Below, one piece after another: positions 31,871 through 50,254 of a stretch of DNA of 64,000 nt. Every line of letters begins with the position of its first letter. Position 1 is the stretch's first letter. The translations under genes were made by a program, and so were the position numbers. This DNA is from Promethearchaeota archaeon (GTDB lineage: Archaea > Asgardarchaeota > Lokiarchaeia > Sigyniarchaeales > SOKP01). The stretch is from NCBI GenBank assembly GCA_048940925.1, contig JBHLOC010000002.1, forward strand, positions 64,001 through 128,000. The letters run 5' to 3'. A model generated the notes under the pieces. The model had not been told where the DNA came from. It did no database searches and worked only from the letters and a program-made list of their open reading frames with translations.

Positions 31871-32974
31871 ATCGTATTATTTATCACTTATGATCCAATC
31901 GAACGCTTTCTTTCAAGCTTGACTATTACTGCTTTAATTGTGTGTAGTATATTTTTTTTATTGCAAGGTCGAAAGAGAGAAGTGTATCATGAAAAAATCC
32001 TGATGTATGGTTTTGCGAGTTTATGGATAAGCATTGGCTTAACAAGACTTTTCTTTTATTTTAGCGACTATTGGTTAGTAGGAACCTATACTGGAGATGT
32101 AGAAAGCATTTTTCAAGTAAATAATCTCCTACAAATAATAATTTATTACTTTTACATGTATCTTTACATCTATATTTATATAAATGTAATAATATTATGT
32201 TTGATGTTTGTTTGGTTTTCCATTAAATTAAAAGTTGAATTTCAAGCAATTTCCTCGATGATGGCGCTTGGTTTTACTGTATTTTTAATTGGTTGGACAT
32301 TTGAGGCAGTATCGATAAAAGCTTTAGGTTTTTTATTTTCTGGAATATCCTCTATACTTGTTTTAATCGGAGTTTTAATTGCAATTTCTCCCTTAGTGCT
32401 TGAGTTCGAATTCTTTTCTAGAAGATTAGCAATTTGGTTAATTATATCAATTATTGGTTTTATAGGCGTTTTTCTTACTTCTACATTCATCTTTAATCTT
32501 GAAACAATTGCCTTAATTTTAGTTATGATTGGATTTTTCTCAATATTATTAGGTTCAGTAATAGTATATATGATATTTTATGCAATTAGATCAACTAAAG
32601 CACCGAAGGAACAGAAAGAAGAACTTCAAGAAACATTAAGATTCTTTACTAGACGCCAAAAGTTTACAGAAGAAGAGGTCGCATTTCATAGAGAAAGAAA
32701 AATTTGTTTAGTGTGCAAAACTCATATTTCAAGATTAAGCTATATTTGCCCGGAGTGTGATGCTCTATATTGTGTTAAGTGCTCTGAGGCATTAAGTAAT
32801 TTAGAAAATGCATGTTGGGTTTGTGAAACCCCATTCGATGAAACTAAAGCCGTTCATATTGTGAGAGAAGAAAAGGCACTTTTAGAAGTTGATGAGACAA
32901 TCGTTTCTGAAATTGAAGATAAAAAAAGTAAAAAAGCACCTAAGAAAATTAAAAATGATATGAAAAAGAATTAA
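31871..32974 (+). CDS. Multi-pass membrane protein with C-terminal C4C4 RING-like domain (candidate E3 ligase); probable ATC start
   Basis: About 7 hydrophobic segments, then C-x2-C-x10-C-x2-C-x4-C-x2-C-x10-C-x2-C. GGTGA + 6 nt + ATC lies upstream of the tracked TTG. Confidence 0.7.
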   Translation: MVLFITYDPIERFLSSLTITALIVCSIFFLLQGRKREVYHEKILMYGFASLWISIGLTRLFFYFSDYWLVGTYTGDVESIFQVNNLLQIIIYYFYMYLYIYIYINVIILCLMFVWFSIKLKVEFQAISSMMALGFTVFLIGWTFEAVSIKALGFLFSGISSILVLIGVLIAISPLVLEFEFFSRRLAIWLIISIIGFIGVFLTSTFIFNLETIALILVMIGFFSILLGSVIVYMIFYAIRSTKAPKEQKEELQETLRFFTRRQKFTEEEVAFHRERKICLVCKTHISRLSYICPECDALYCVKCSEALSNLENACWVCETPFDETKAVHIVREEKALLEVDETIVSEIEDKKSKKAPKKIKNDMKKN

Positions 32975-36350: not shown

Positions 36351-36608
36351 ATGAGAATTACTGTTGAGGATTCAAGAACGGGAAAAGTAATCAAATTAGA
36401 TGTAAAATCTCATCACCAAATAGAAAGAATAGTTGATATTATTATAAAGCATATGGGTATTATCAGCGCAGAACAACGTTCTTATTCTTTAGTACTTAAA
36501 GATCAAGAACTCCCAAATACCATTACAATTGAGGATGCTGTTCATAAATTTGGCTTACAAGAAAATGATAAATTAATCTTATGGGCAAAAGTTGTGGGTG
36601 GGTCTTAA
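36351..36608 (+). CDS. Ubiquitin-like (beta-grasp) protein ending in GG-S
   Basis: MRITVED..TGKVIKLDV...L...TIED..GLQENDKLIL...VVGGS. Adjacent to E2/E1/JAMM. Confidence 0.85.
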   Translation: MRITVEDSRTGKVIKLDVKSHHQIERIVDIIIKHMGIISAEQRSYSLVLKDQELPNTITIEDAVHKFGLQENDKLILWAKVVGGS

Positions 36609-36634: not shown

Positions 36635-37201
36635 TTAGTCATCGATGATTAAAATTTCATCATCTTCTTCTTCTTCCTCAAATAATTGATCTTCGATGCT
36701 ATATTCTTTTTTAAGTTCTTCAACCGATGTTTTATTAAAAAATTCCGCAGCTTCTAAACATATAGGATAATTTAATGGATCATCAGGATTAGGATGTTCT
36801 ACCAGAGTTCTAAGAGCTTTAATCGTCGTTTCTAAATCAGATAACCTTGACCATTTTTTTAAGACGTTCAAGCAAATATATCCTGTCCCTGTGCTCCTTG
36901 ATGGGTTTTTAACAGGATGGATATTTGGATGAAAAATGCTTGAAAACCAAGAAAAATCAATCCCACCAGGATAAGGAAATGATCTATTAATCTTCAAGAA
37001 AATTCTATGAGATGTTTGTGGTTTTAATTCACCGTCTAATTTAGTTACCCCAAAAGCATTGATTAATATTGTAAATTCAACACTATTATTACCTTTAATT
37101 ACAGAATTTTCTACTAACACTTTAAGCTTTTGAATATTTTTAAGTTCATTTTCGATCCTATCTTTCCATATTTCATACGGAAGTTCTGGCACTTTCTTCA
37201 A
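36635..37201 (-). CDS. Ubiquitin-conjugating enzyme E2
   Basis: FPYP, IFHPNI...GYICLNVLKKW, PNPDDPLN..AA. Acidic C-terminal tail. Confidence 0.9.
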   Translation of the reverse strand: MKKVPELPYEIWKDRIENELKNIQKLKVLVENSVIKGNNSVEFTILINAFGVTKLDGELKPQTSHRIFLKINRSFPYPGGIDFSWFSSIFHPNIHPVKNPSRSTGTGYICLNVLKKWSRLSDLETTIKALRTLVEHPNPDDPLNYPICLEAAEFFNKTSVEELKKEYSIEDQLFEEEEEDDEILIIDD

Positions 37202-37283: not shown

Positions 37284-38168
37284 TCATTTTTTCTTTTTAT
37301 ATGAACATGTCCAGCATTCTGGGTTCTTTAATTTTTTTACAATCCTAAATTGATTTAATAAACCATTGTAATTAAGTTGTTTACCAATCAAAGGTTTTCC
37401 TATGTGAGGATGCCATTTACCATGTTCTTTAAAATAGTCTAAACCTAAAAGAAATTTCAATACTTGTTGAGATTGTAAACCACCTATAATAGATGTGGTG
37501 GTGATGATTGTTGCCATTTTTGCTATTGTCTCACCATTTTCACTTTCGATTTCTTGACCGGTACATGAAAATTTTTTCCACATGATATCTAAATCAGTAT
37601 TTGAAATACTACATTGCAAACATGCGGCATCTTCTTCTCCAGAATATACAGATTGTACACTACCATAAAATTCTTCAATTCCTGAATCTACAAAGGGAAC
37701 ATCGTTGTAATAAGCATAATTGTTTGCTTCAATTCTAGCCTCTACGTTATCTAAACATGAACATATTACATCTGATTTTGTATAGAGCTTTTTATTAATA
37801 TCTTTTAAATCCTTTTTTATTGCCATTATAGACGTGTCCGGATTTAGTTGCTCACATGCACTTTTTATAACATCGACTTTATATTCTTTATTTTGAGCGC
37901 TTTTTTCATTAAATAGTACACAACGATTTAGATTAGAAATATTAATAAAATCATAATCTATCAATATTAGTTTTCCTATACCGGTTAAAACTAAGTTTTT
38001 AACAACTTCATTGCCAGTAGCCCCTACACCGATAACCATCACTGTGGCATTAGAAATTTTACTTTGATCCCAGCCAAATATACGCTTTTGGCGATCAAAC
38101 TTATCTGAATCTATTGATTCAATCCCATAAACTTTATACTCATCTTGATTTTTTTTATTATTTTGCAT
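37284..38168 (-). CDS. Ubiquitin-activating enzyme E1 (ThiF family)
   Basis: FDRQ, GVGATG, DYD.I..SNLNR, CLDNVEAR, ACLQC, putative catalytic SCT, CWTC. Confidence 0.9.
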   Translation of the reverse strand: MQNNKKNQDEYKVYGIESIDSDKFDRQKRIFGWDQSKISNATVMVIGVGATGNEVVKNLVLTGIGKLILIDYDFINISNLNRCVLFNEKSAQNKEYKVDVIKSACEQLNPDTSIMAIKKDLKDINKKLYTKSDVICSCLDNVEARIEANNYAYYNDVPFVDSGIEEFYGSVQSVYSGEEDAACLQCSISNTDLDIMWKKFSCTGQEIESENGETIAKMATIITTTSIIGGLQSQQVLKFLLGLDYFKEHGKWHPHIGKPLIGKQLNYNGLLNQFRIVKKLKNPECWTCSYKKKK

Positions 38169-38181
38169 TTAGATTTTAAAT

Positions 38182-38685
38182 TTATGTTATGTTTGGTTTA
38201 TCAACTAAAACAGCATAGCTAATTGATTTATAACCTTTATCTGAAGAATTATCAAGAGTGAAGAATTCTAATTCATCTCTTACGGGATCTATAACTAAGG
38301 CCACCTGGAAACTTTCTGGGAAGAAATAATTTTGTGTTTTTATATCAGTTGTAGAGAGAAAGCATCCAAAATCAGGATGAGAATGCCACCATCCCAAAAT
38401 TCGAAGCGAAGGATTATTTCTTGCTTTTTTTAGTCTTTGAAACTTCTTTTCATATTTTCCTGCAGTTCCTTCTATTTGAGCTGTTGAATATTTTTCACTA
38501 TGCACTGCGCCCAAAAGAAAAAGTAGATCCTCAATAACAATATAAATATTATCTTTCCATTTTAATATATTTCCAATTAAATAGCCGAAAATTTCATTTT
38601 CAATGTTCTTACATAATTGAATAATCTTCCGAATTGTGTTATCATAAATATATACAGGAAATATATATTTTTTTTCGAATTTCAT
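38182..38685 (-). CDS. JAMM/MPN+ metalloprotease (Rpn11-like deubiquitinase)
   Basis: E(IFGYLIG)...GWWHSHPDFGCFLSTTD..TQ...ALVIDP. Confidence 0.92.
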   Translation of the reverse strand: MKFEKKYIFPVYIYDNTIRKIIQLCKNIENEIFGYLIGNILKWKDNIYIVIEDLLFLLGAVHSEKYSTAQIEGTAGKYEKKFQRLKKARNNPSLRILGWWHSHPDFGCFLSTTDIKTQNYFFPESFQVALVIDPVRDELEFFTLDNSSDKGYKSISYAVLVDKPNIT

Positions 38686-38721: not shown

Positions 38722-39621
38722 TTATTGATACTTGGCTTTAAATCTTCCACTCTTTTCAATTATGGAATTTTGAATCATTTTGTTTATTATTTCATATATT
38801 TCTTCTTTCGCCTTTTTATCAATCGCAGAAAAACCAAAAGTTATTAATCCAAATGATTCAGTTATTTTTTCTGGTTCAAAAGATGATTTCGTCAAATCTT
38901 GAAAGTTAGCAATAATATAAAAATCTGCTTTAATTGCCCTTCTTTTTAAATGATCATAAATGTTCTTAGTCCTACCTAAATTGCCAGCACCTGAATTTGT
39001 AACGATACAAATAATATCAAATGAATCCAGTAGAGGCTTATATAAAGCAGAATTTTCATATATATCTTGTAAATTAACCTCTCTAATAATAACCTCATTT
39101 AATTTTTCAAAATTAGATAAAACAACCTTTTTTTCTAATATTTCATTAAAATCATCGTCCAATTCCAAGACAGTTTCTCCAGGAAATAAGTTTAAAATAG
39201 AAGTTTTGCCTACTCCTTCTTCTCCTATTAGCAATATCCTTGGAGGTATAAAAATATGTTTTTCGGTAAATTCATCTAATTCTTTAATAATTTTGATTTT
39301 TTTATCCCAACTAAACGATTTAAGTTTATATCGCCTAATAAATTCTCGTTTTAATAATTCTAATCGATTTCTTAATTCTAATTCTTGATCTCCCCCACCA
39401 CTTATTAGTATATACATGAAATTTTGCTCATCATAAGAATAGATAAATTTAAAGTTCGTAAAGTTCAAGGATCTTATTTTACCTCCTCCTAATTTTCTAC
39501 TGTAATCATTAAAAGTAGTGAGGTAATTTACTATATCATTATCAACAACATGGGGACTCATAAATGTTTTAGAATAACATAATTCTCCCTCTGCGGTGAT
39601 AATAAATATTTTTGAGATCAT
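38722..39621 (-). CDS. Longin domain-small GTPase fusion, paralog C
   Basis: Longin-like N-half. GEEGVGKTS P-loop, NFQD, FSA. Confidence 0.75.
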   Translation of the reverse strand: MISKIFIITAEGELCYSKTFMSPHVVDNDIVNYLTTFNDYSRKLGGGKIRSLNFTNFKFIYSYDEQNFMYILISGGGDQELELRNRLELLKREFIRRYKLKSFSWDKKIKIIKELDEFTEKHIFIPPRILLIGEEGVGKTSILNLFPGETVLELDDDFNEILEKKVVLSNFEKLNEVIIREVNLQDIYENSALYKPLLDSFDIICIVTNSGAGNLGRTKNIYDHLKRRAIKADFYIIANFQDLTKSSFEPEKITESFGLITFGFSAIDKKAKEEIYEIINKMIQNSIIEKSGRFKAKYQ

Positions 39622-39667
39622 TCCAATTTTGTATTAATTTATTTTAATAATTTTTATTTTTTTCATT

Positions 39668-40564
39668 TTAAATTTGTTTTTTCATAATCTTTTCTACTAT
39701 TGAAGATTTTACCATCTCACTAATTATGTCATTTATTTTTCCTTTTGCCTCTTTTTTAATTGCCGAGAGCCCAAAAGTTTTAACTCCAAATATTTCCTCT
39801 ATTTTTTCGGGTTCAAAAGATGTGCTTTCTAAATCTTGAAAATTAGCAATAATGTAAAAATCAGCTTTCTTTACTCTTTCTTGTAACATAGAAAATAATC
39901 TTTTTGTTCTTCCCAAATTACTAGCTCCAGAGTTAGTGACAATACATATAATATCAATAGCATCTAAAAGTGTTCTATAGACTTTTGTATTGTCAATCAA
40001 TTCTTTTAGATCAAGTTCTCTTAAAATTAATTCGTTTATTCTATCGAAAACAGGTAAATGTATTGGCTTTTGAATTATTTCAATTAAATCATCATCTAAT
40101 TCTATTATAGTTTCTCCCGGAAATAAATTCATGATTGTACTCTTTCCCACTCCATCTTCGCCAACTAGTAAAACTTTAGGAGGAATAAAAATATTTTTTT
40201 CTGCAAACTCATCAAATTTTTCATATTTAGTTGTTTCACATGACCAGTTTTTTAAATCCTCATAATATCTCTTCATAAATTCCTCTTTAAGTAACTCAAG
40301 TTTCGCAGTGACTTCTTCCTCTGGGTCATTAATATCAGTTACTATAATAAACATTCCTAGTTTTTCATCATCATAAGTATAAACAAAATTGAAATTTCTG
40401 AAGTTTAATGACTTTATTTCTCCACCCCCTATTTCTTCAGCTATATTGCTAATCGCGGTTAGAAATCCACTTATCAAATCACCACTAATTTGATCATCAC
40501 CGATAAATGTCTTTGAATAGCAAAGCACGCCACCAGGACCAATAATAAGTATTTTTGAAATCAT
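39668..40564 (-). CDS. Longin domain-small GTPase fusion, paralog B
   Basis: ILII..GGVLCYSK...LISGFLTAI...EIGGGEIKSL longin signature. GEDGVGKST, NFQD, LSA. Confidence 0.8.
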   Translation of the reverse strand: MISKILIIGPGGVLCYSKTFIGDDQISGDLISGFLTAISNIAEEIGGGEIKSLNFRNFNFVYTYDDEKLGMFIIVTDINDPEEEVTAKLELLKEEFMKRYYEDLKNWSCETTKYEKFDEFAEKNIFIPPKVLLVGEDGVGKSTIMNLFPGETIIELDDDLIEIIQKPIHLPVFDRINELILRELDLKELIDNTKVYRTLLDAIDIICIVTNSGASNLGRTKRLFSMLQERVKKADFYIIANFQDLESTSFEPEKIEEIFGVKTFGLSAIKKEAKGKINDIISEMVKSSIVEKIMKKQI

Positions 40565-40693
40565 TTTGGGGTTTATATTATATCCATTTATTAATTAATT
40601 TAATAATAGAAAGATTGATTATTTAAAATGATCATATGAAATTTCAACAATTATAAATATATTATTCTCATTTAAATACAATTGTGAAATATT

Positions 40694-40843
40694 TTGGATG
40701 AAAGAGACGAAGATACGCAACCCCATGATAAGGAACCAACAATTATAAGCTCCGAAGATCAAGAAATTAAAGAAAAGAAACCTCCAAATGATAAAATAAT
40801 TTATTGTAAAATAGTAGAAAATGATAAGAATTCAGATTTTTAA
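40694..40843 (+). CDS. Possible 49-aa acidic microprotein
   Basis: TTG start after GTGA. MDERDEDTQPHDKEPTIISSEDQEIKEKKPPNDKIIYCKIVENDKNSDF*. Confidence 0.35.
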   Translation: MDERDEDTQPHDKEPTIISSEDQEIKEKKPPNDKIIYCKIVENDKNSDF

Positions 40844-40907
40844 AATAAAGAAGCCTAACTTTAGTAAAACTAATTTAATTCACTTTTTTGAAAAAATATA
40901 GCCAAAA

Positions 40908-41858
40908 TTAATTTAAAATAATAGTAATATCGTCATCATTCTCTATTTTACTCCCATCTTGTTCTTTTTTAGAAGAAGAATATTTTTTAATAATTGAGTA
41001 TTCAACCATTTCTGTAATTATGTTATAAATTTTTTTATTTGCCTTTTTTGATATAGCTGAGATACCAAAAGTCTTTATTTTAAAATATTCTTCAATTTTT
41101 TCGGGCAGAAATGACATATCTTTTAAATCTTGGAAGTTAGCAATTATATAGAAATCGGCTTTTTTTACTTTTGGTTTCAAAAGAGTGAACAGTCTTTTTG
41201 TTTCTTTTAAATTCTTTGCCCCTGAATTGGTAACGATACAAAAAATTTCCACAGAGTCTAAGAATTGTTGATGAGTATTCAAATTATCAATTAAATCACG
41301 TAGATCAATTTCCCTGACAATAATTTCCCCTATCTCTTTTAGTTTTGGTAAATAAATTGTTTTTTGTATAATATCATTCATATATTCATCCAGTTTTATT
41401 ACTGTATCTCCTGGAAATAGATTCATAATAGTCGTTTTTCCCACACCAACTTCTCCAACTAACAATATTTTAGGAGGAATAAAAATCTGTTTCTCAGTAA
41501 ATTCATCAAAGCTTTTAAATTTTCTAATATCATAATCCCAGTTTTCTAAATCATGTCGATATCGTTTCATAAACTCCATTTTTAATAATTCTACTTTATA
41601 TCTTATTTCGTCTTCCAAGTCATCAACGTCAGTTATAATTATGAATATATAAGATTTTTCATAATTGAAGGAATAAAAAATATTAAAGTTCCTAAAACTT
41701 AGAGATTTTATTTCTCCTCCACCAATTTCCTTAGCAATGTCGCTAACAGCTGTAAAGAAACCACTTACAAAATCTTCATCTATTCTTTTTTCATCCATAA
41801 ATGATTTTGAATAACAAAGAACTCCATTAGACTTTATAATTAATATTTTCTTAATCAT
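40908..41858 (-). CDS. Longin domain-small GTPase fusion, paralog A
   Basis: FVSGFFTAV...EIGGGEIKSL. GEVGVGKTT, NFQD, ISA. Confidence 0.8.
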   Translation of the reverse strand: MIKKILIIKSNGVLCYSKSFMDEKRIDEDFVSGFFTAVSDIAKEIGGGEIKSLSFRNFNIFYSFNYEKSYIFIIITDVDDLEDEIRYKVELLKMEFMKRYRHDLENWDYDIRKFKSFDEFTEKQIFIPPKILLVGEVGVGKTTIMNLFPGDTVIKLDEYMNDIIQKTIYLPKLKEIGEIIVREIDLRDLIDNLNTHQQFLDSVEIFCIVTNSGAKNLKETKRLFTLLKPKVKKADFYIIANFQDLKDMSFLPEKIEEYFKIKTFGISAISKKANKKIYNIITEMVEYSIIKKYSSSKKEQDGSKIENDDDITIILN

Positions 41859-41917: not shown

Positions 41918-43816
41918 TTATAATTCTTCAATCTCCGCAAGAAAAATATCTGCTATTTTATTCCACTTCTCTTTAATATCCGATTGAGTTGATGCTGAAT
42001 TTGTCATTTCTTTTCCCTTTTTCAAGTTTTTTACAGCTAGTTCATCACTTTTGAGTTCTTTATAACAGATACCTAGCTTAATATAAGTTTGATTAATATA
42101 CCATTCGTTATTGGCTATTTCTATTACCTTTTGAAACTGCTTTATGGCATTTTGATAGTCTTGAAAATACATTAATATTTCTCCGTATGTATCGTAATAA
42201 ATTCCAGTCTCTGGATTACGCTTAATGAGATCACGAATAACATCCAATGATTCTTCCTCCTTATTTAAATATTGTAACCAATAAGCTTTATACACTAGTA
42301 GTTCATTATCCTTTGGATATTTCTGAAGTAATTCATTAATTATTTCAAATCCATCTTTAACCTCCTTTATTCTTTTAAGTACAGAAGCTTTTTTCATTTT
42401 GATATCCTTTTCACTTTCAGGAAATATTTCTAGCATTTCATCTAATAAATTTATAATTTCGTCTATTTGGTCAAAATAGATTAAAATTTTGATTTTAGAA
42501 TAATATAATTCAAGATTTTTTGGAGTTTTTTCGATGTCTTGATTAATCTCTTCAAGTTCCTTTTTATATTGCTTTTCTAAATCTTCTGAATTCTGCGTTT
42601 GAAATACTTTTAGCATACCCTGCCAGATAATTCCCTCTAATTTATCATATTCCTCTTTTAACTCTACTTTTGCTTCAATCTTATATGCTAAATAGTTAAT
42701 GTAATTTGGTAAAAATTCCCTTAAGGATTCCTTTAATCTTTCATCAAATAGTAAATCGGTAATTTCCTCTAAAATACTATTTAATGTGGTATTAATATCT
42801 ATTGATCTTGAAAATAATTTATCTAGATAGGTAAATTCACTGATGGAATCTTCAGTAATTGCACGTATTATTGTTTCTAACTTTTCATTTTCCTGGAAGT
42901 AATAAAAATTGCCGGGAGGTACCTTTAATTTAAAAAATTTTATTGGATATATGTTATTCTCTACAATTTCATCAATATAATAAGTAAGCGTATTCTCCTT
43001 AATTCCATATTTTCGGGAGAATTCTTCAGATGAAATATATTCTGGATACCGAACAGGATGATTCAATGAAAGATATAACAATATTTTATGAAAATCATCC
43101 TCATTTTTTAACAAAGACTCAACTCTATTATAATCTAGTTTTAATACGTTGTTGAGAAACCTAAATTGTGTGCGTGTATCATTTATGTTAAACTCATCAA
43201 AAAAATTTAGTGTCTTGCGAGCAACTTCTTCAATTCTCTTACTTTCCTCTTCCAAAATCGTTTGTCTATCTAAATCATAATATTGCAACATTCGTGAATA
43301 CTCAGATTTACCTACTTGAGTAATTCTGTATTCTTTCTTATCATCATCTTTTCCTACATACCCATTCCTTATCATTAATTTCATTGTCTTGGATAATGAT
43401 GACTGATTAATAGAAAGCGGTTCTGCTAGAAAATCTGCCCACTTGCAGTAGTTATTATTATACAACATCCACAAAATCCAATGGTCATAATTCCTACTCT
43501 TTAACATTATTTCAGGAGGATAACTCAACGTTCTTTTTTTCTTCTTTACTTTAGATAAATCATGGAATCTTCTCTTGCCTTCAGACGTGATTTTATAATG
43601 TCCTTTTGAAATTTTATTTATATACTTTTCATTTATTAACGTTGTAAGGTATCTTGAAAGTGTAGATGTAGATATTTCAAGTGGTTCCTGAATAAAATCA
43701 GACCATTCACATTCTTTGTTATTATATAACATCCAGAGAATGATATGCTCGAAATTTTTCTTTTCTAAACTTGGAGGGTTAAAAATTTCTTGAGGTGGGT
43801 AATTTCGACTTGACAT
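41918..43816 (-). CDS. Tandem winged-HTH (MarR-like) + TPR protein, paralog 1
   Basis: Two repeats of YP...HxILWML.NN..C...F...P..I..SxLS...L...Y.IT..GK. C-terminal TPRs (YYDTYGEILM, TYIKLGICY). Confidence 0.75.
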   Translation of the reverse strand: MSSRNYPPQEIFNPPSLEKKNFEHIILWMLYNNKECEWSDFIQEPLEISTSTLSRYLTTLINEKYINKISKGHYKITSEGKRRFHDLSKVKKKKRTLSYPPEIMLKSRNYDHWILWMLYNNNYCKWADFLAEPLSINQSSLSKTMKLMIRNGYVGKDDDKKEYRITQVGKSEYSRMLQYYDLDRQTILEEESKRIEEVARKTLNFFDEFNINDTRTQFRFLNNVLKLDYNRVESLLKNEDDFHKILLYLSLNHPVRYPEYISSEEFSRKYGIKENTLTYYIDEIVENNIYPIKFFKLKVPPGNFYYFQENEKLETIIRAITEDSISEFTYLDKLFSRSIDINTTLNSILEEITDLLFDERLKESLREFLPNYINYLAYKIEAKVELKEEYDKLEGIIWQGMLKVFQTQNSEDLEKQYKKELEEINQDIEKTPKNLELYYSKIKILIYFDQIDEIINLLDEMLEIFPESEKDIKMKKASVLKRIKEVKDGFEIINELLQKYPKDNELLVYKAYWLQYLNKEEESLDVIRDLIKRNPETGIYYDTYGEILMYFQDYQNAIKQFQKVIEIANNEWYINQTYIKLGICYKELKSDELAVKNLKKGKEMTNSASTQSDIKEKWNKIADIFLAEIEEL

Positions 43817-44452: not shown

Positions 44453-44995
44453 ATGAATGAGTCTGGAAAAGAATTACGATTTAAGATTACAGTTATAGGA
44501 GATGGAAAAGTAGGAAAGACATCTCTTATTAAAAAATTCACTCAGGGTACATTTGATACTAACTATGTCGAGACGATTGGGGCTCAATTTTCCAAGTATG
44601 ATAAAAAAATAGATGGGGATAATATAAGATTATTATTTTGGGATATTGCAGGTCAAGATTCATTTCACTTTTTACGTCCTTCTTTCTTTAGAGAGAGTTC
44701 TGCTGCTATTATTGTATATAGTCTTGAAAAAAATGAGCTTGGAAGCCGAAGTTTTGAACATATAACTAATTGGTATGAGGATGTTAATCGTTTTTGTGGA
44801 CAAATCCCTATTGTTATATTTGCTAATAAGGTTGATCTAATTGAAGAAGATAAACTAGACCACTCACAAATTCAAAAAATTGTACAAAAACACAATTTTC
44901 TAGATTATTTTATTACTTCTGCGAAATCAGGACAAGGAGTTTATAAGGCATTTAATGCAATTATTAATAAATTGTATAATGATTTAATACGCTAA
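44453..44995 (+). CDS. Rab-like small GTPase
   Basis: GDGKVGKTS, TIG, WDIAGQ, NKVD, TSAK. Confidence 0.92.
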   Translation: MNESGKELRFKITVIGDGKVGKTSLIKKFTQGTFDTNYVETIGAQFSKYDKKIDGDNIRLLFWDIAGQDSFHFLRPSFFRESSAAIIVYSLEKNELGSRSFEHITNWYEDVNRFCGQIPIVIFANKVDLIEEDKLDHSQIQKIVQKHNFLDYFITSAKSGQGVYKAFNAIINKLYNDLIR

Positions 44996-48340: not shown

Positions 48341-50254
48341 TTAATGTGAAGGTGATTCTTGTTTTTGTTCCCTTATTTCTGCAAGGAAAAGGTCTATAAT
48401 AGGTAACCATTTATTTTTTGAATCAAGATCACTTATAATTTTATTTGTCAATTCTTTTCCTTTCTTAAGATATCTTCTTGCTAACTCAAAATCTTCAAGT
48501 ACTGTATAACAGATTCCTAACTTTATATACGTCTGGTGTATATACCACGCAGTAGGCTCAAATTCTATGGCTTTTTGGAATTCTTTTATGGCTTTTTCAT
48601 ATTCTTTAAAGGATATCAAGATCTCTCCATAGGTATCATGATAAATTCCTTTTTTTGGTTCATTTTCGGTTAGATTCTGAAGAATATCCACAGCTTCTTG
48701 TTGTTTCCCCAGATATGATAACCAATATGCTTTATAATTAAATAAATTAGTATCATTTGGGTATTTTTCGAGTAACTGTTCAATAATTTCTAAGCCAGCT
48801 TCTAGACTTTTATCTCTTTTAAGAGTGTATGCTTTTTTTATCATGATATCCATTTCTTGTTCTGGGAATTCTTCAATCATTTTCTCTAATACCATCAATG
48901 CATCATTATATTGGTTAAAATAAAGGAGAGTTCTAAGTTTTGAATTATATAATTCATAGTTCTTAGGATTTAGGTCGATTTCTTTATCAATTTCTTTAAT
49001 TTTTTCTTCATATTGAGTTTCTAATGTTTCAGAATTCAGGGAATGCATAAGCTCTGTCATGTTCTGCCAGATTATTCCTTCTAGTTTATCATAAGTTTCT
49101 TTTAAATCTCTTTTCGTCTCAATTTTATAAGCTAAATATTTTATATATCCTGGTAAAAAATCTCTTAATGATTCCTTGAAATGTTTATGGAATGTGGTTT
49201 CACAAATTTCATCAAGAATATCATCTATAGTAGAATTTAAGTCACCAGTCCTTCCAAATTTTTCCAAATATTTGTTAGTTGCAATATGTTCTTCAGTAAT
49301 AGCTCGAAGTATCTTCTCTAGTTTTTCATCTGAATGAAAATAATAATATTTATCTGGAGAAAATTCTAACTTAAAGAACTTAAGGTCATATAAATCGCTT
49401 TCTACAATCTCATTTACCCAAAAATAAACGGTTCTCTTTTTAATTGTATAATATCTTGAAAAATCCTCAAAAGATAGATAATCGGGATAAAAATCAGGAT
49501 GGTTAATTGATATAAAGAGTAAAATTTTATGGAAATCCTCTTCATTTTTTAATACTCCTTTTACTTTTGAATAATCTAATTTTAACACATTATTAAGAAA
49601 TCTAAATTTGACATGGTCATCAGTTATTTTGAATTTATCAAAAAATTGGGATGTCTTTATAGTAATTTCATCAATCCTTTTCCTTTCCTCTTCTAAAATT
49701 GTTTGTCTGTCTAAATTATATTGTTGAAGAATCTTCGAATATTCTGCCTTTCCTGATTGAGTAATTAAATATCTTTTGTTTTCGTTGATGATAAATCTCT
49801 TTTTGATTAATGAACTTAGACTTTTTGATAAGGATGATTGATTTATAGAAAATGGTTCCTCAAGAAAATCAGACCTTTTACAAAAACCATTATTGTACAC
49901 CATCCATAGAATCCAATGGGAATAATTCCTCACACTTTTTAAAATGATTTTTGGTGGATAACTCAACTTTCGTTCCTTTCTTCTTTCTTTTGATAACTCA
50001 TTGAATTTCTTTTTCCCTTCTGCAGTTATTCTGTATTGTCCTCTCGCAAACTTTTCAATAAATCCTTTAAAGATTAATCTTGTGAAATGACGCGATAACG
50101 TAGAAATGGGAATTTCAATTGGTTTTTGCTCAAAATTAGACCATTCACAACTTTCATTATTTGCCAACATCCAAAGAATTATATGGTCATAATTCTTTCT
50201 TTGTAGTTTCGAGGGGTTAAGAATCTCGTCAGAGGGATAATTTAATTTTCCCAT
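48341..50254 (-). CDS. Tandem winged-HTH + TPR protein, paralog 2
   Basis: Full-length similarity to 41918..43816 (LDRQTILEEE, EDFHKILL, YDKLEGIIWQ). Confidence 0.78.
   Translation of the reverse strand: MGKLNYPSDEILNPSKLQRKNYDHIILWMLANNESCEWSNFEQKPIEIPISTLSRHFTRLIFKGFIEKFARGQYRITAEGKKKFNELSKERRKERKLSYPPKIILKSVRNYSHWILWMVYNNGFCKRSDFLEEPFSINQSSLSKSLSSLIKKRFIINENKRYLITQSGKAEYSKILQQYNLDRQTILEEERKRIDEITIKTSQFFDKFKITDDHVKFRFLNNVLKLDYSKVKGVLKNEEDFHKILLFISINHPDFYPDYLSFEDFSRYYTIKKRTVYFWVNEIVESDLYDLKFFKLEFSPDKYYYFHSDEKLEKILRAITEEHIATNKYLEKFGRTGDLNSTIDDILDEICETTFHKHFKESLRDFLPGYIKYLAYKIETKRDLKETYDKLEGIIWQNMTELMHSLNSETLETQYEEKIKEIDKEIDLNPKNYELYNSKLRTLLYFNQYNDALMVLEKMIEEFPEQEMDIMIKKAYTLKRDKSLEAGLEIIEQLLEKYPNDTNLFNYKAYWLSYLGKQQEAVDILQNLTENEPKKGIYHDTYGEILISFKEYEKAIKEFQKAIEFEPTAWYIHQTYIKLGICYTVLEDFELARRYLKKGKELTNKIISDLDSKNKWLPIIDLFLAEIREQKQESPSH

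Follow-up and report, generated by a model that had tools for sequence, protein, structure and literature searches.

Fusions of a longin domain with a GTPase have been reported several times from Loki genomes, by Klinger et al. (2016), as cited in PMC4917890, and, as Asgard longin-Arf-like fusions, by Liu et al. (10.1101/2020.10.19.343400) and Tran et al. (2024; PMC10933270). The last of these was an AlphaFold2 survey of 74 MK-D1 GTPases, in which small-GTPase genes were generally not in operons with regulators. In this study, a stretch of 64,000 nt from a Promethearchaeota archaeon (contig JBHLOC010000002.1, positions 64,001 to 128,000; G+C approximately 30%), referred to below as the window, was analysed for three co-oriented tandem open reading frames (ORFs) on the minus strand within positions 38722-41858, designated A, B, and C. 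Their products are paralogous proteins with a longin domain and an Arf-family G domain; they are a single-origin offshoot of the Asgard longin-Arf fusions and belong to a derived subfamily restricted to one Lokiarchaeial (Promethearchaeota) family. The order of longin domain first and GTPase second, which a first-pass annotation of the window set against the opposite order in Rag-type GTPases, is not new, having already been published in the three sources above. New here are the derived, single-origin nucleotide pocket, variants fused to nitrilase or TIR domains, and a near-obligate coupling to an operon for JAB, E1, E2, and a ubiquitin-like protein (Ubl), which is the strongest functional clue and was left unused in that annotation. 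No report of the degenerate subfamily or of its Ubl operon was found in the literature searched, which is no proof of absence.

Like the canonical Asgard fusions, the window proteins have the longin domain at the N-terminus and an Arf/Rag-like G domain at the C-terminus; both come from the same phylum, and these canonical fusions, the distant relatives of the subfamily, are 25-30% identical to the window proteins over the full length. The canonical proteins keep the PTI, WDxxGQ, and NKQD motifs and pass the Pfam Arf threshold (65-80 bits, some with weak longin matches as well), whereas in the window subfamily these motifs are lost, switch I carries a 5-residue insert, new residues are invariant, and the genes are tied to a Ubl operon. 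As for the operon, the systems to be compared are the prokaryotic Ubl-E1-E2-JAB operons, including the Caldiarchaeum/Asgard clusters, Bil, and type II CBASS with Cap2/Cap3; the same four-gene core lies beside the pseudo-GTPases in the window, where the E2 is of the eukaryotic UBC type (UQ_con). We know of no prokaryotic Ubl-E1-E2-JAB system described with a longin-GTPase component, and no report of such a component in prokaryotic Ubl operons was found in the literature searched.

Judged by their pocket residues, A, B, and C are probably nucleotide-binding pseudo-GTPases. Gene C (40908..41858, 316 aa) adjoins a gene for a winged helix-turn-helix (wHTH) and TPR protein, B (39668..40564, 298 aa) was the copy used for structure modelling, and A (38722..39621, 299 aa), the most divergent copy, adjoins the JAB gene; pairwise identity among the three is 50-52%. 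In B, the longin domain covers approximately residues 1-125 (nt 40190-40564) and the G domain approximately residues 130-297 (nt 39674-40177). All motifs quoted for the three proteins were located in each of them and their coordinates verified: the P-loop GE.GVGK[ST], LFPG[ED]T, RE[VLI][DN]L, VTNSGA.NL, NFQD, and the SA of G5. Sharing to this extent is far beyond chance. The first-pass annotation had placed the three ORFs exactly, and the P-loop, LFPG[ED]T, VTNSGA.NL, NFQD, and G5 SA that it had listed were present in all three; VTNSGA.NL, however, is no new motif but the subfamily form of a superfamily-wide [IV]TDS...N found after strand beta4, with TDS changed to TNS (D to N).

Conservation was counted over 123 family members. 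The P-loop (41433-41456 in C, 39202-39225 in A, and 40139..40162 in B, where it reads GEDGVGKS) is kept, with its two Gly and its Lys (G135, G140, and K141 of B) in 123/123 and with Glu at its second position in the subfamily. The G4 motif NFQD (41127-41138 in C, 39833..39844 in B, and 38896-38907 in A) stands in place of the NKQD of canonical relatives, as had been annotated for NKxD; its N is found in 121/123, F in 122/123, Q in 123/123, and D in 122/123, so that N and D, the residues of guanine specificity, are retained. The SA of G5 is largely kept across the family.

The elements facing the gamma-phosphate are different. In the switch-I region (40061..40102 in B), there is an insert of 5 residues, E-L-D-[D/E]-D (ELDDD in B), absent from canonical relatives, and D157 within it is invariant. 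Behind the insert, Q165-K166 occupy the site of the canonical P-T-I; the G2 Thr is lost, its position being taken by Q165, and K166 is invariant. D157, K166, S212, and N216 are each present in 123/123, and E183 is present in 121/123. The canonical W-D-x-x-G-Q of G3 has become L-[D/N]-L-x-[D/E]-[L/I], within REIDLRDL in C (41292-41315), RELDLKEL in B (39998..40021), and REVNLQDI in A (39061-39084). By alignment to canonical relatives and by the extent of strand beta3 in the model (residues 178-185), the DxxG equivalent in B is D185-L-K-E188. D185, and not E183, is the Walker-B equivalent, because beta3 of the model stops at residue 185. The position is D in B and C and N in A (D in 80/123 and N in 40/123 of the family), the Gly of DxxG is replaced by D or E in 117/123 (E188 in B), and the catalytic Gln by L or I (L189 in B). 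The annotated absence of DxxG is borne out by these counts; the proposed replacement, RE[LVI][DN], was placed three residues out of register, and its R182 and E183 are instead a new conserved pair. A cross-strand salt bridge between K166 and E183 that locks the interswitch is only an idea.

In the lineage of A, the Mg2+ ligands have decayed further, as seen in N185 and in an A-type ortholog (L007), which reads GKK for GK[ST] and has lost the Ser/Thr of the P-loop. For the family in general, a G-domain fold with altered and conserved G2, G3 (Gly and Gln), and G4 (Lys) is the sequence pattern by which a pseudo-GTPase is recognised. By the chemistry of the Ras superfamily, such a pattern predicts that guanine nucleotide binding is kept and that gamma-phosphate sensing and canonical catalysis are lost.

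A phmmer scan of 1.8 billion representatives gave 310 relatives. Of the best 150 of these 310, the 113 with at least 250 aa were aligned with A, B, and C (116 rows, 105 with an aligned P-loop), and a fully canonical pocket (GxxGVGKT, the Thr of P-T-I, W-D-x-x-G-Q, and NKQD) was present in 72 of the 105 P-loop-bearing rows among the matches listed. The homologs all came from Promethearchaeota (Asgard/Loki-type) metagenome-assembled genomes, and a cluster of 376 Promethearchaeota proteins in the ESM Atlas matched the full-length model at a template modelling (TM) score of 0.87. In a tree of the G domain (162 columns, with the motif columns, a small part of them, left in), 17 of the 18 rows with derived motifs fell into one clade (SH-aLRT 99); the derived trait needs two changes on this tree, the second being an unrelated, independently degenerate sequence. 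Intermediates were also observed: P0125 and P0126 are without G3 and G2 and keep NKQD, and P0124, likewise without G3, has NWQD. The derived pocket descends from canonical ancestors and arose once, as one clade.

The 123 subfamily sequences fell into three groups, one each for A, B, and C, with good support for the C group (98), moderate support for the B group (86), and weak support for the A group (63); the A of the window has the longest branch. The genome of the window contains exactly three subfamily copies and approximately five canonical longin-Arf fusions. Among 201 sampled genomes of the phylum, the subfamily was confined to the window's own GTDB family, and matches outside it showed about 30% identity, the level of canonical relatives. 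Conservation of the substitutions, which are derived with respect to canonical ancestors, across three old orthogroups and approximately 120 homologs indicates that they are under selection, as the first-pass annotation had argued from the three paralogs; its proposal of a pseudo-GTPase or a G domain of altered chemistry likewise still stands, as far as residues can tell, and the case that it had allowed for, homologs with mostly canonical pockets, was judged not to apply.

A confident AlphaFold2 model of B was made from an alignment of 60 sequences (predicted local distance difference test, pLDDT, 86.7; predicted TM score 0.81), and the N-domain was also folded separately (pLDDT 82.6). In both models, its topology is beta-beta-alpha-beta-beta-beta-alpha-alpha, without the N-terminal helix of roadblock domains; DSSP assigned strands to residues 2-8, 14-19, 52-54, 58-64, and 71-77 and helices to residues 28-44, 82-105, and 112-125. 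Its profile matched AP-2 sigma (E 1e-6) and also AP-3 sigma, SRX (E 0.07), Bet5/Trs23, and VAMP7, and Foldseek matched it to the longin domain of Sec22b over the full length (TM 0.73, E 1.5e-5). Further Foldseek longin matches were VAMP7, Ykt6, AP-2 sigma, the SRX entry 1nrj, and entry 9ddt, with roadblock proteins lower in the ranking. By profile, Foldseek, and topology, the N-domain has a longin fold, as annotated.

The C-terminal domain is modelled as an Arf-like G domain. The best Foldseek matches of the B domain were Arl1 and Arf1, and it is structurally closest to Arf/Arl (Arf1, Z 17.6, root-mean-square deviation 2.8 Å over 151 residues), with lower scores for RagD (2q3f, Z 14.8), SR-beta (2fh5_B, Z 14.7), and 8yl2 (Z 14.5). 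It begins at approximately residue 128, behind the longin domain and without the N-terminal amphipathic helix of the Arf type, and forms the C-terminal end of the protein with no domain after it. By sequence, Pfam returned for A, B, and C only P-loop, Arf, and RsgA matches, all below threshold; the Arf model (PF00025) scored 18.8 bits for B against a gathering cut-off of 22.3 and did not match A or C. No family in Pfam, NCBIfam, or PADLOC was above threshold for any of the three.

These folds allow comparison with three further groups of proteins. A longin fold is paired with an Arf-family G domain in SRX of SR-alpha with SR-beta and in AP sigma or zeta-COP with Arf1; these eukaryotic pairs are separate polypeptides with a working switch, whereas in the window proteins the two are fused and the switch is degenerate, and homology to a particular pair is not implied. 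Rag/Gtr proteins, including the Loki RagA-like 8yl2, resemble A, B, and C in that one chain combines a small G domain with a roadblock/longin-superfamily domain and in that they occur as paralog pairs, but they carry their own roadblock domain C-terminally, dimerise through it, and keep working G motifs; in structure, the window G domain is nearer to Arf than to Rag (Z 17.6 versus 14.8). Eukaryotic pseudo-GTPases (AAGAB, CENP-M, the pG domains of p190RhoGAP, and Rnd/RhoH) also have a G fold without catalytic or switch motifs that serves as an interaction module, and the pseudo-GTPase domain of AAGAB binds sigma-adaptin, which has a longin fold; in this connection, 9ddt was one of the longin matches given above. 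They show no sequence relationship to the window proteins, and the pseudo-GTPases of the window are therefore of independent origin.

The clearest hint at function comes from gene order. On the minus strand of the window, the order is wHTH-TPR, C, B, A, JAB, E1, and E2, followed by a convergent Ubl gene. A JAB/MPN metalloprotease (38182..38685), the conserved partner gene of the family, starts 36 nt downstream of A, and a ThiF-type E1 (37284..38168) and a UBC-fold E2 (36635..37201; UQ_con, 41 bits) follow, all on the minus strand. The Ubl (36351..36608, plus strand, 85 aa) ends in GG-S. The wHTH-TPR protein (41918..43816, minus strand, 632 aa), with two winged-helix domains and a TPR region, is encoded 59 nt upstream of C. 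The E1 and JAB proteins gave weak matches to the PADLOC E1-E2 and JAB models and to NCBIfam 6A-MBL cap2_3. Among the three E2 genes found in this genome, that of the operon diverges most, and on this ground the operon is taken for a specialised extra Ubl system and not the only one. The same genome contains another ubiquitin-type cluster (G000:C30:43942-45095), marked by a second E2 (UQ_con, 90 bits) and, approximately 0.5 kb from it, a JAB-like gene; no pseudo-GTPase match was found at this cluster.

The order from wHTH-TPR to E2 recurs in two other loci (L003 and L007). Elsewhere, the number of copies upstream of JAB varies between genomes from one to three, or the copy is nitrilase-fused: 1) B and A stand upstream of JAB-E1-E2 and Ubl in L008/L009; 2) a single copy precedes a complete JAB-E1-E2 and Ubl set in L015 and L016, JAB-E1 in L001, and JAB-E1-E2 in L010, with Ubl found in neither of the latter two; 3) a single copy lies upstream of JAB-E1 in L006, L013, and L014, with an 871-aa longin-pseudoG-nitrilase fusion nearby; and 4) an 880-aa fusion is directly upstream of JAB in L011. 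In L004 and L005, C-type copies stay beside the wHTH-TPR gene. The module was found in at least three different flanking contexts.

Co-occurrence was surveyed in 81 genomes, all of the window's GTDB family. A JAB ortholog was present in 41 and a pseudo-GTPase in 42; both genes occurred in 40, 38 matched neither, and only 3 were discordant (agreement 78/81). Two of the discordant genomes are assemblies 74-81% complete, and the third is a complete genome with JAB and no pseudo-GTPase match at E <=1e-40. By hand comparison of coordinates, 38 of 42 JAB loci were directly preceded by a family member, which could be plain, fused to nitrilase, or lacking the longin domain; among the remaining four, one had a family member within 2 kb and the others were at contig breaks or had none that could be found. 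Within genera the distribution was patchy, three genomes of the window's own genus matching neither gene, one of them 100% complete. One to three pseudo-GTPase genes are thus the near-obligate first gene(s) of an operon of the order pseudo-GTPase(1-3)-JAB-E1-E2-Ubl, and the operon is gained and lost as a unit.

The explanation that we prefer, with a probability of roughly 0.55 for the whole, is that A, B, and C are nucleotide-binding pseudo-GTPases acting as operon-bound adaptor or regulatory subunits of the Ubl module. With the elements of phosphate and guanine binding kept (P-loop GxxGxGK[ST], the N and D of G4, and the SA of G5) and those of gamma-phosphate/Mg2+ sensing and catalysis replaced (switch-I Thr, the Gly of DxxG, the catalytic Gln, and in A also the Walker-B Asp), guanine nucleotide would still be bound and there would be no classical switch timed by hydrolysis, as expected of a catalytically impaired pseudo-GTPase. 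Through the longin domain, the proteins may then serve the Ubl-conjugation module in a non-catalytic way, as adaptors or regulatory subunits, perhaps by recruiting a substrate or E2, by controlling the JAB protease, or by being conjugated themselves.

Three points weigh against this explanation. The adaptor role is one that we infer from gene neighbourhood only. The invariant D157, K166, and E183 and the D/E at position 188, next to the gamma-phosphate site, could form an alternative catalytic or Mg2+ site and not a dead one. Finally, the surveyed genomes all belong to one GTDB family, so that synteny is partly inherited and the counts are not independent. Despite this kinship, the module looks like a functional unit: its genes are gained and lost together, its copy number varies, and it stands between different flanks.

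A further proposal, which we put forward tentatively, is that the pseudo-GTPases are dedicated subunits of a mobile Ubl-conjugation module, in E3-like selection, in gating of JAB, or as proteins switched by Ubl, some of them with a nitrilase/TIR effector and the system possibly being an immune one like Bil or type II CBASS. If true, this would be an Asgard system physically joining the longin/Arf toolkit of trafficking to ubiquitin-type signalling. The longin domains, small GTPases, and ubiquitin components of Asgard archaea are mostly treated apart from each other, each as a eukaryotic signature system, and the operon links them; it hints that archaea already had Ubl conjugation joined to longin/GTPase modules, perhaps as part of a conflict system. 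It also offers a concrete and testable set of partners for an otherwise orphan Asgard GTPase-like family, and the natural series from canonical through intermediate to derived proteins allows the turning of a G domain into a pseudo-enzyme to be studied.

Several proteins with the derived G domain carry other domains. At least 35 protein clusters of approximately 870-880 aa consist of longin, degenerate G domain, a middle region of approximately 300 aa, and a C-terminal CN_hydrolase of the nitrilase superfamily; these fusions (for example L011:6001-8643, L006:6721-9336, and L014:6001-8616; proteins P0271-P0305) are a fourth branch of the family. The nitrilase part matched the PADLOC DRT nitrilase model (4e-15), and the middle and C-terminal parts gave weak sequence matches only in the PDB (Nit2, E 0.003). 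Nitrilase fusions lie directly upstream of JAB in L011, G192, G226, G235, G071, and G150. Shorter proteins join the derived G domain to CN_hydrolase, TPR, or TIR; the TIR fusion P0134 (L022:7001-7942; TIR_2, 2.9e-15) is without a longin domain, and no Ubl genes were found around it within the contig stretch examined. One genome of the same genus (G228) has two separate pseudo-GTPase-JAB modules, at C76:25809-27187 and C13:6103-13171, with a nitrilase fusion near one of them, which is consistent with an accessory, duplicable unit.

Such features suggest, as the first alternative, a conflict or anti-virus system in which the degenerate G domain is the sensor or switch, operating with a Bil/CBASS-like Ubl-E1-E2-JAB set and an effector that is either fused (nitrilase, TIR) or separate. 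The spread of the same derived G domain over CN_hydrolase, TIR, and TPR fusions, the resemblance of the nitrilase part to that of DRT, the filling of the slot upstream of JAB by nitrilase fusions, and the accessory nature of the module, which is patchy within genera, had no match in one 100%-complete genome of the genus, and is doubled in G228, are all in its favour. PADLOC-DB 2.0, however, gave no meaningful match for A, B, and C, only marginal ones in the P-loop region (IetA 4.7e-4 and mad3 6e-3); E2 and JAB match eukaryote-type Pfam models (UQ_con and JAB), the module lies in a conserved chromosomal neighbourhood (SBP, membrane protein, and RING-like gene) and not in obvious defence islands, and the surroundings of the TIR fusion are without Ubl genes. 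No such system was reported in the literature searched, and we regard this alternative as doubtful, if still worth consideration.

Somewhat less probable, in our view, is a rewired pocket in active NTPases of non-canonical mechanism, in which the role of the switch-I Thr would pass to D157 or K166, water or Mg2+ would be oriented by the acidic residue at the former Gly, and the Gln position would be hydrophobic as in hydrophobic amino acid-substituted (HAS) GTPases. HAS-GTPases (FeoB, MnmE, and Era) have a hydrophobic residue at the position of the catalytic Gln, so that the change of Gln to L/I in the subfamily is the HAS signature; the best PDB sequence match was indeed the G domain of FeoB (E 0.004), which we take to belong to this class. 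The new residues are conserved as strongly as the P-loop, and with N and D of G4 and SA of G5 kept a nucleotide is expected. Agreement with the HAS class is only partial, however: HAS-GTPases keep DxxG and the switch-I Thr, and in the subfamily the Gly of DxxG and the G2 Thr are both lost. The Asn at the Walker-B position in 40/123 and the A ortholog without the P-loop Ser/Thr are also hard to square with Mg2+-dependent catalysis in every paralog.

That the proteins are nucleotide-free scaffolds, with the fold kept only as a surface for protein interaction, appears improbable. Three of the five G motifs are altered and the Pfam GTPase models remain below threshold, as would suit a scaffold, but the two Gly and the Lys of the P-loop in 123/123, the N and D of G4 in 121 and 122 of 123, and the largely kept SA speak against it, since a pocket out of use would hardly show conservation this strong in P-loop, G4, and G5. 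Ordinary Rag/Arf-like trafficking switches that heterodimerise through their longin domains, with the position beside ubiquitin genes incidental, are very hard to defend: it is true that longin and roadblock domains often form dimers and bind GTPases (PMC10933270), that three conserved orthogroups stand in tandem, and that a canonical Rab-like GTPase is encoded nearby, yet the switch machinery is lost, an operon copy number of one to three requires no fixed heteromer, and co-occurrence and adjacency with JAB-E1-E2 are near perfect. If the hetero-oligomers through longin domains that the first-pass annotation suggested do form, they cannot be obligatory or universal, since the same slot in other genomes is filled by one, two, or three copies or by one fused to nitrilase.

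Some neighbouring genes recur near the module. The canonical Rab/Ras-like small GTPase of the window (44453..44995, plus strand, 180 aa; Pfam Ras 1.4e-41) has orthologs of 60-77% identity a few kb from the module in L003-L007, L011, and L014 and, as a partial ORF, at the edge of L013. The longin domains may have this GTPase as a client. A putative RING-like membrane protein of 351 aa (31919-32974, plus strand) has BLAST orthologs near the module in L003, L004, L005, L016, L017, and L018 and, in L006, L013, and L014, several copies that match more distantly; with its putative RING, it is a candidate E3 for an operon that has none. The wHTH-TPR gene at 41918-43816 keeps its synteny with C-type copies also in L004, L005, and L016, where the JAB-E1-E2 block has another location, and it has a paralog, also a double winged-helix and TPR protein, at 48341-50254 (minus strand); in L017 and L018, shorter relatives adjoin the G-only forms.

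The gap between C and B (40565-40907) is unusually long, 343 nt against 36-59 nt elsewhere in the operon. Its counterpart in L003 holds a called ORF of 51 aa on the opposite strand. In L007, which is from the same genus, approximately 3.9 kb separate the C and B genes (L007:6534-10477); a 95-aa fragment resembling C lies in this stretch and points to a duplication or insertion at the locus.

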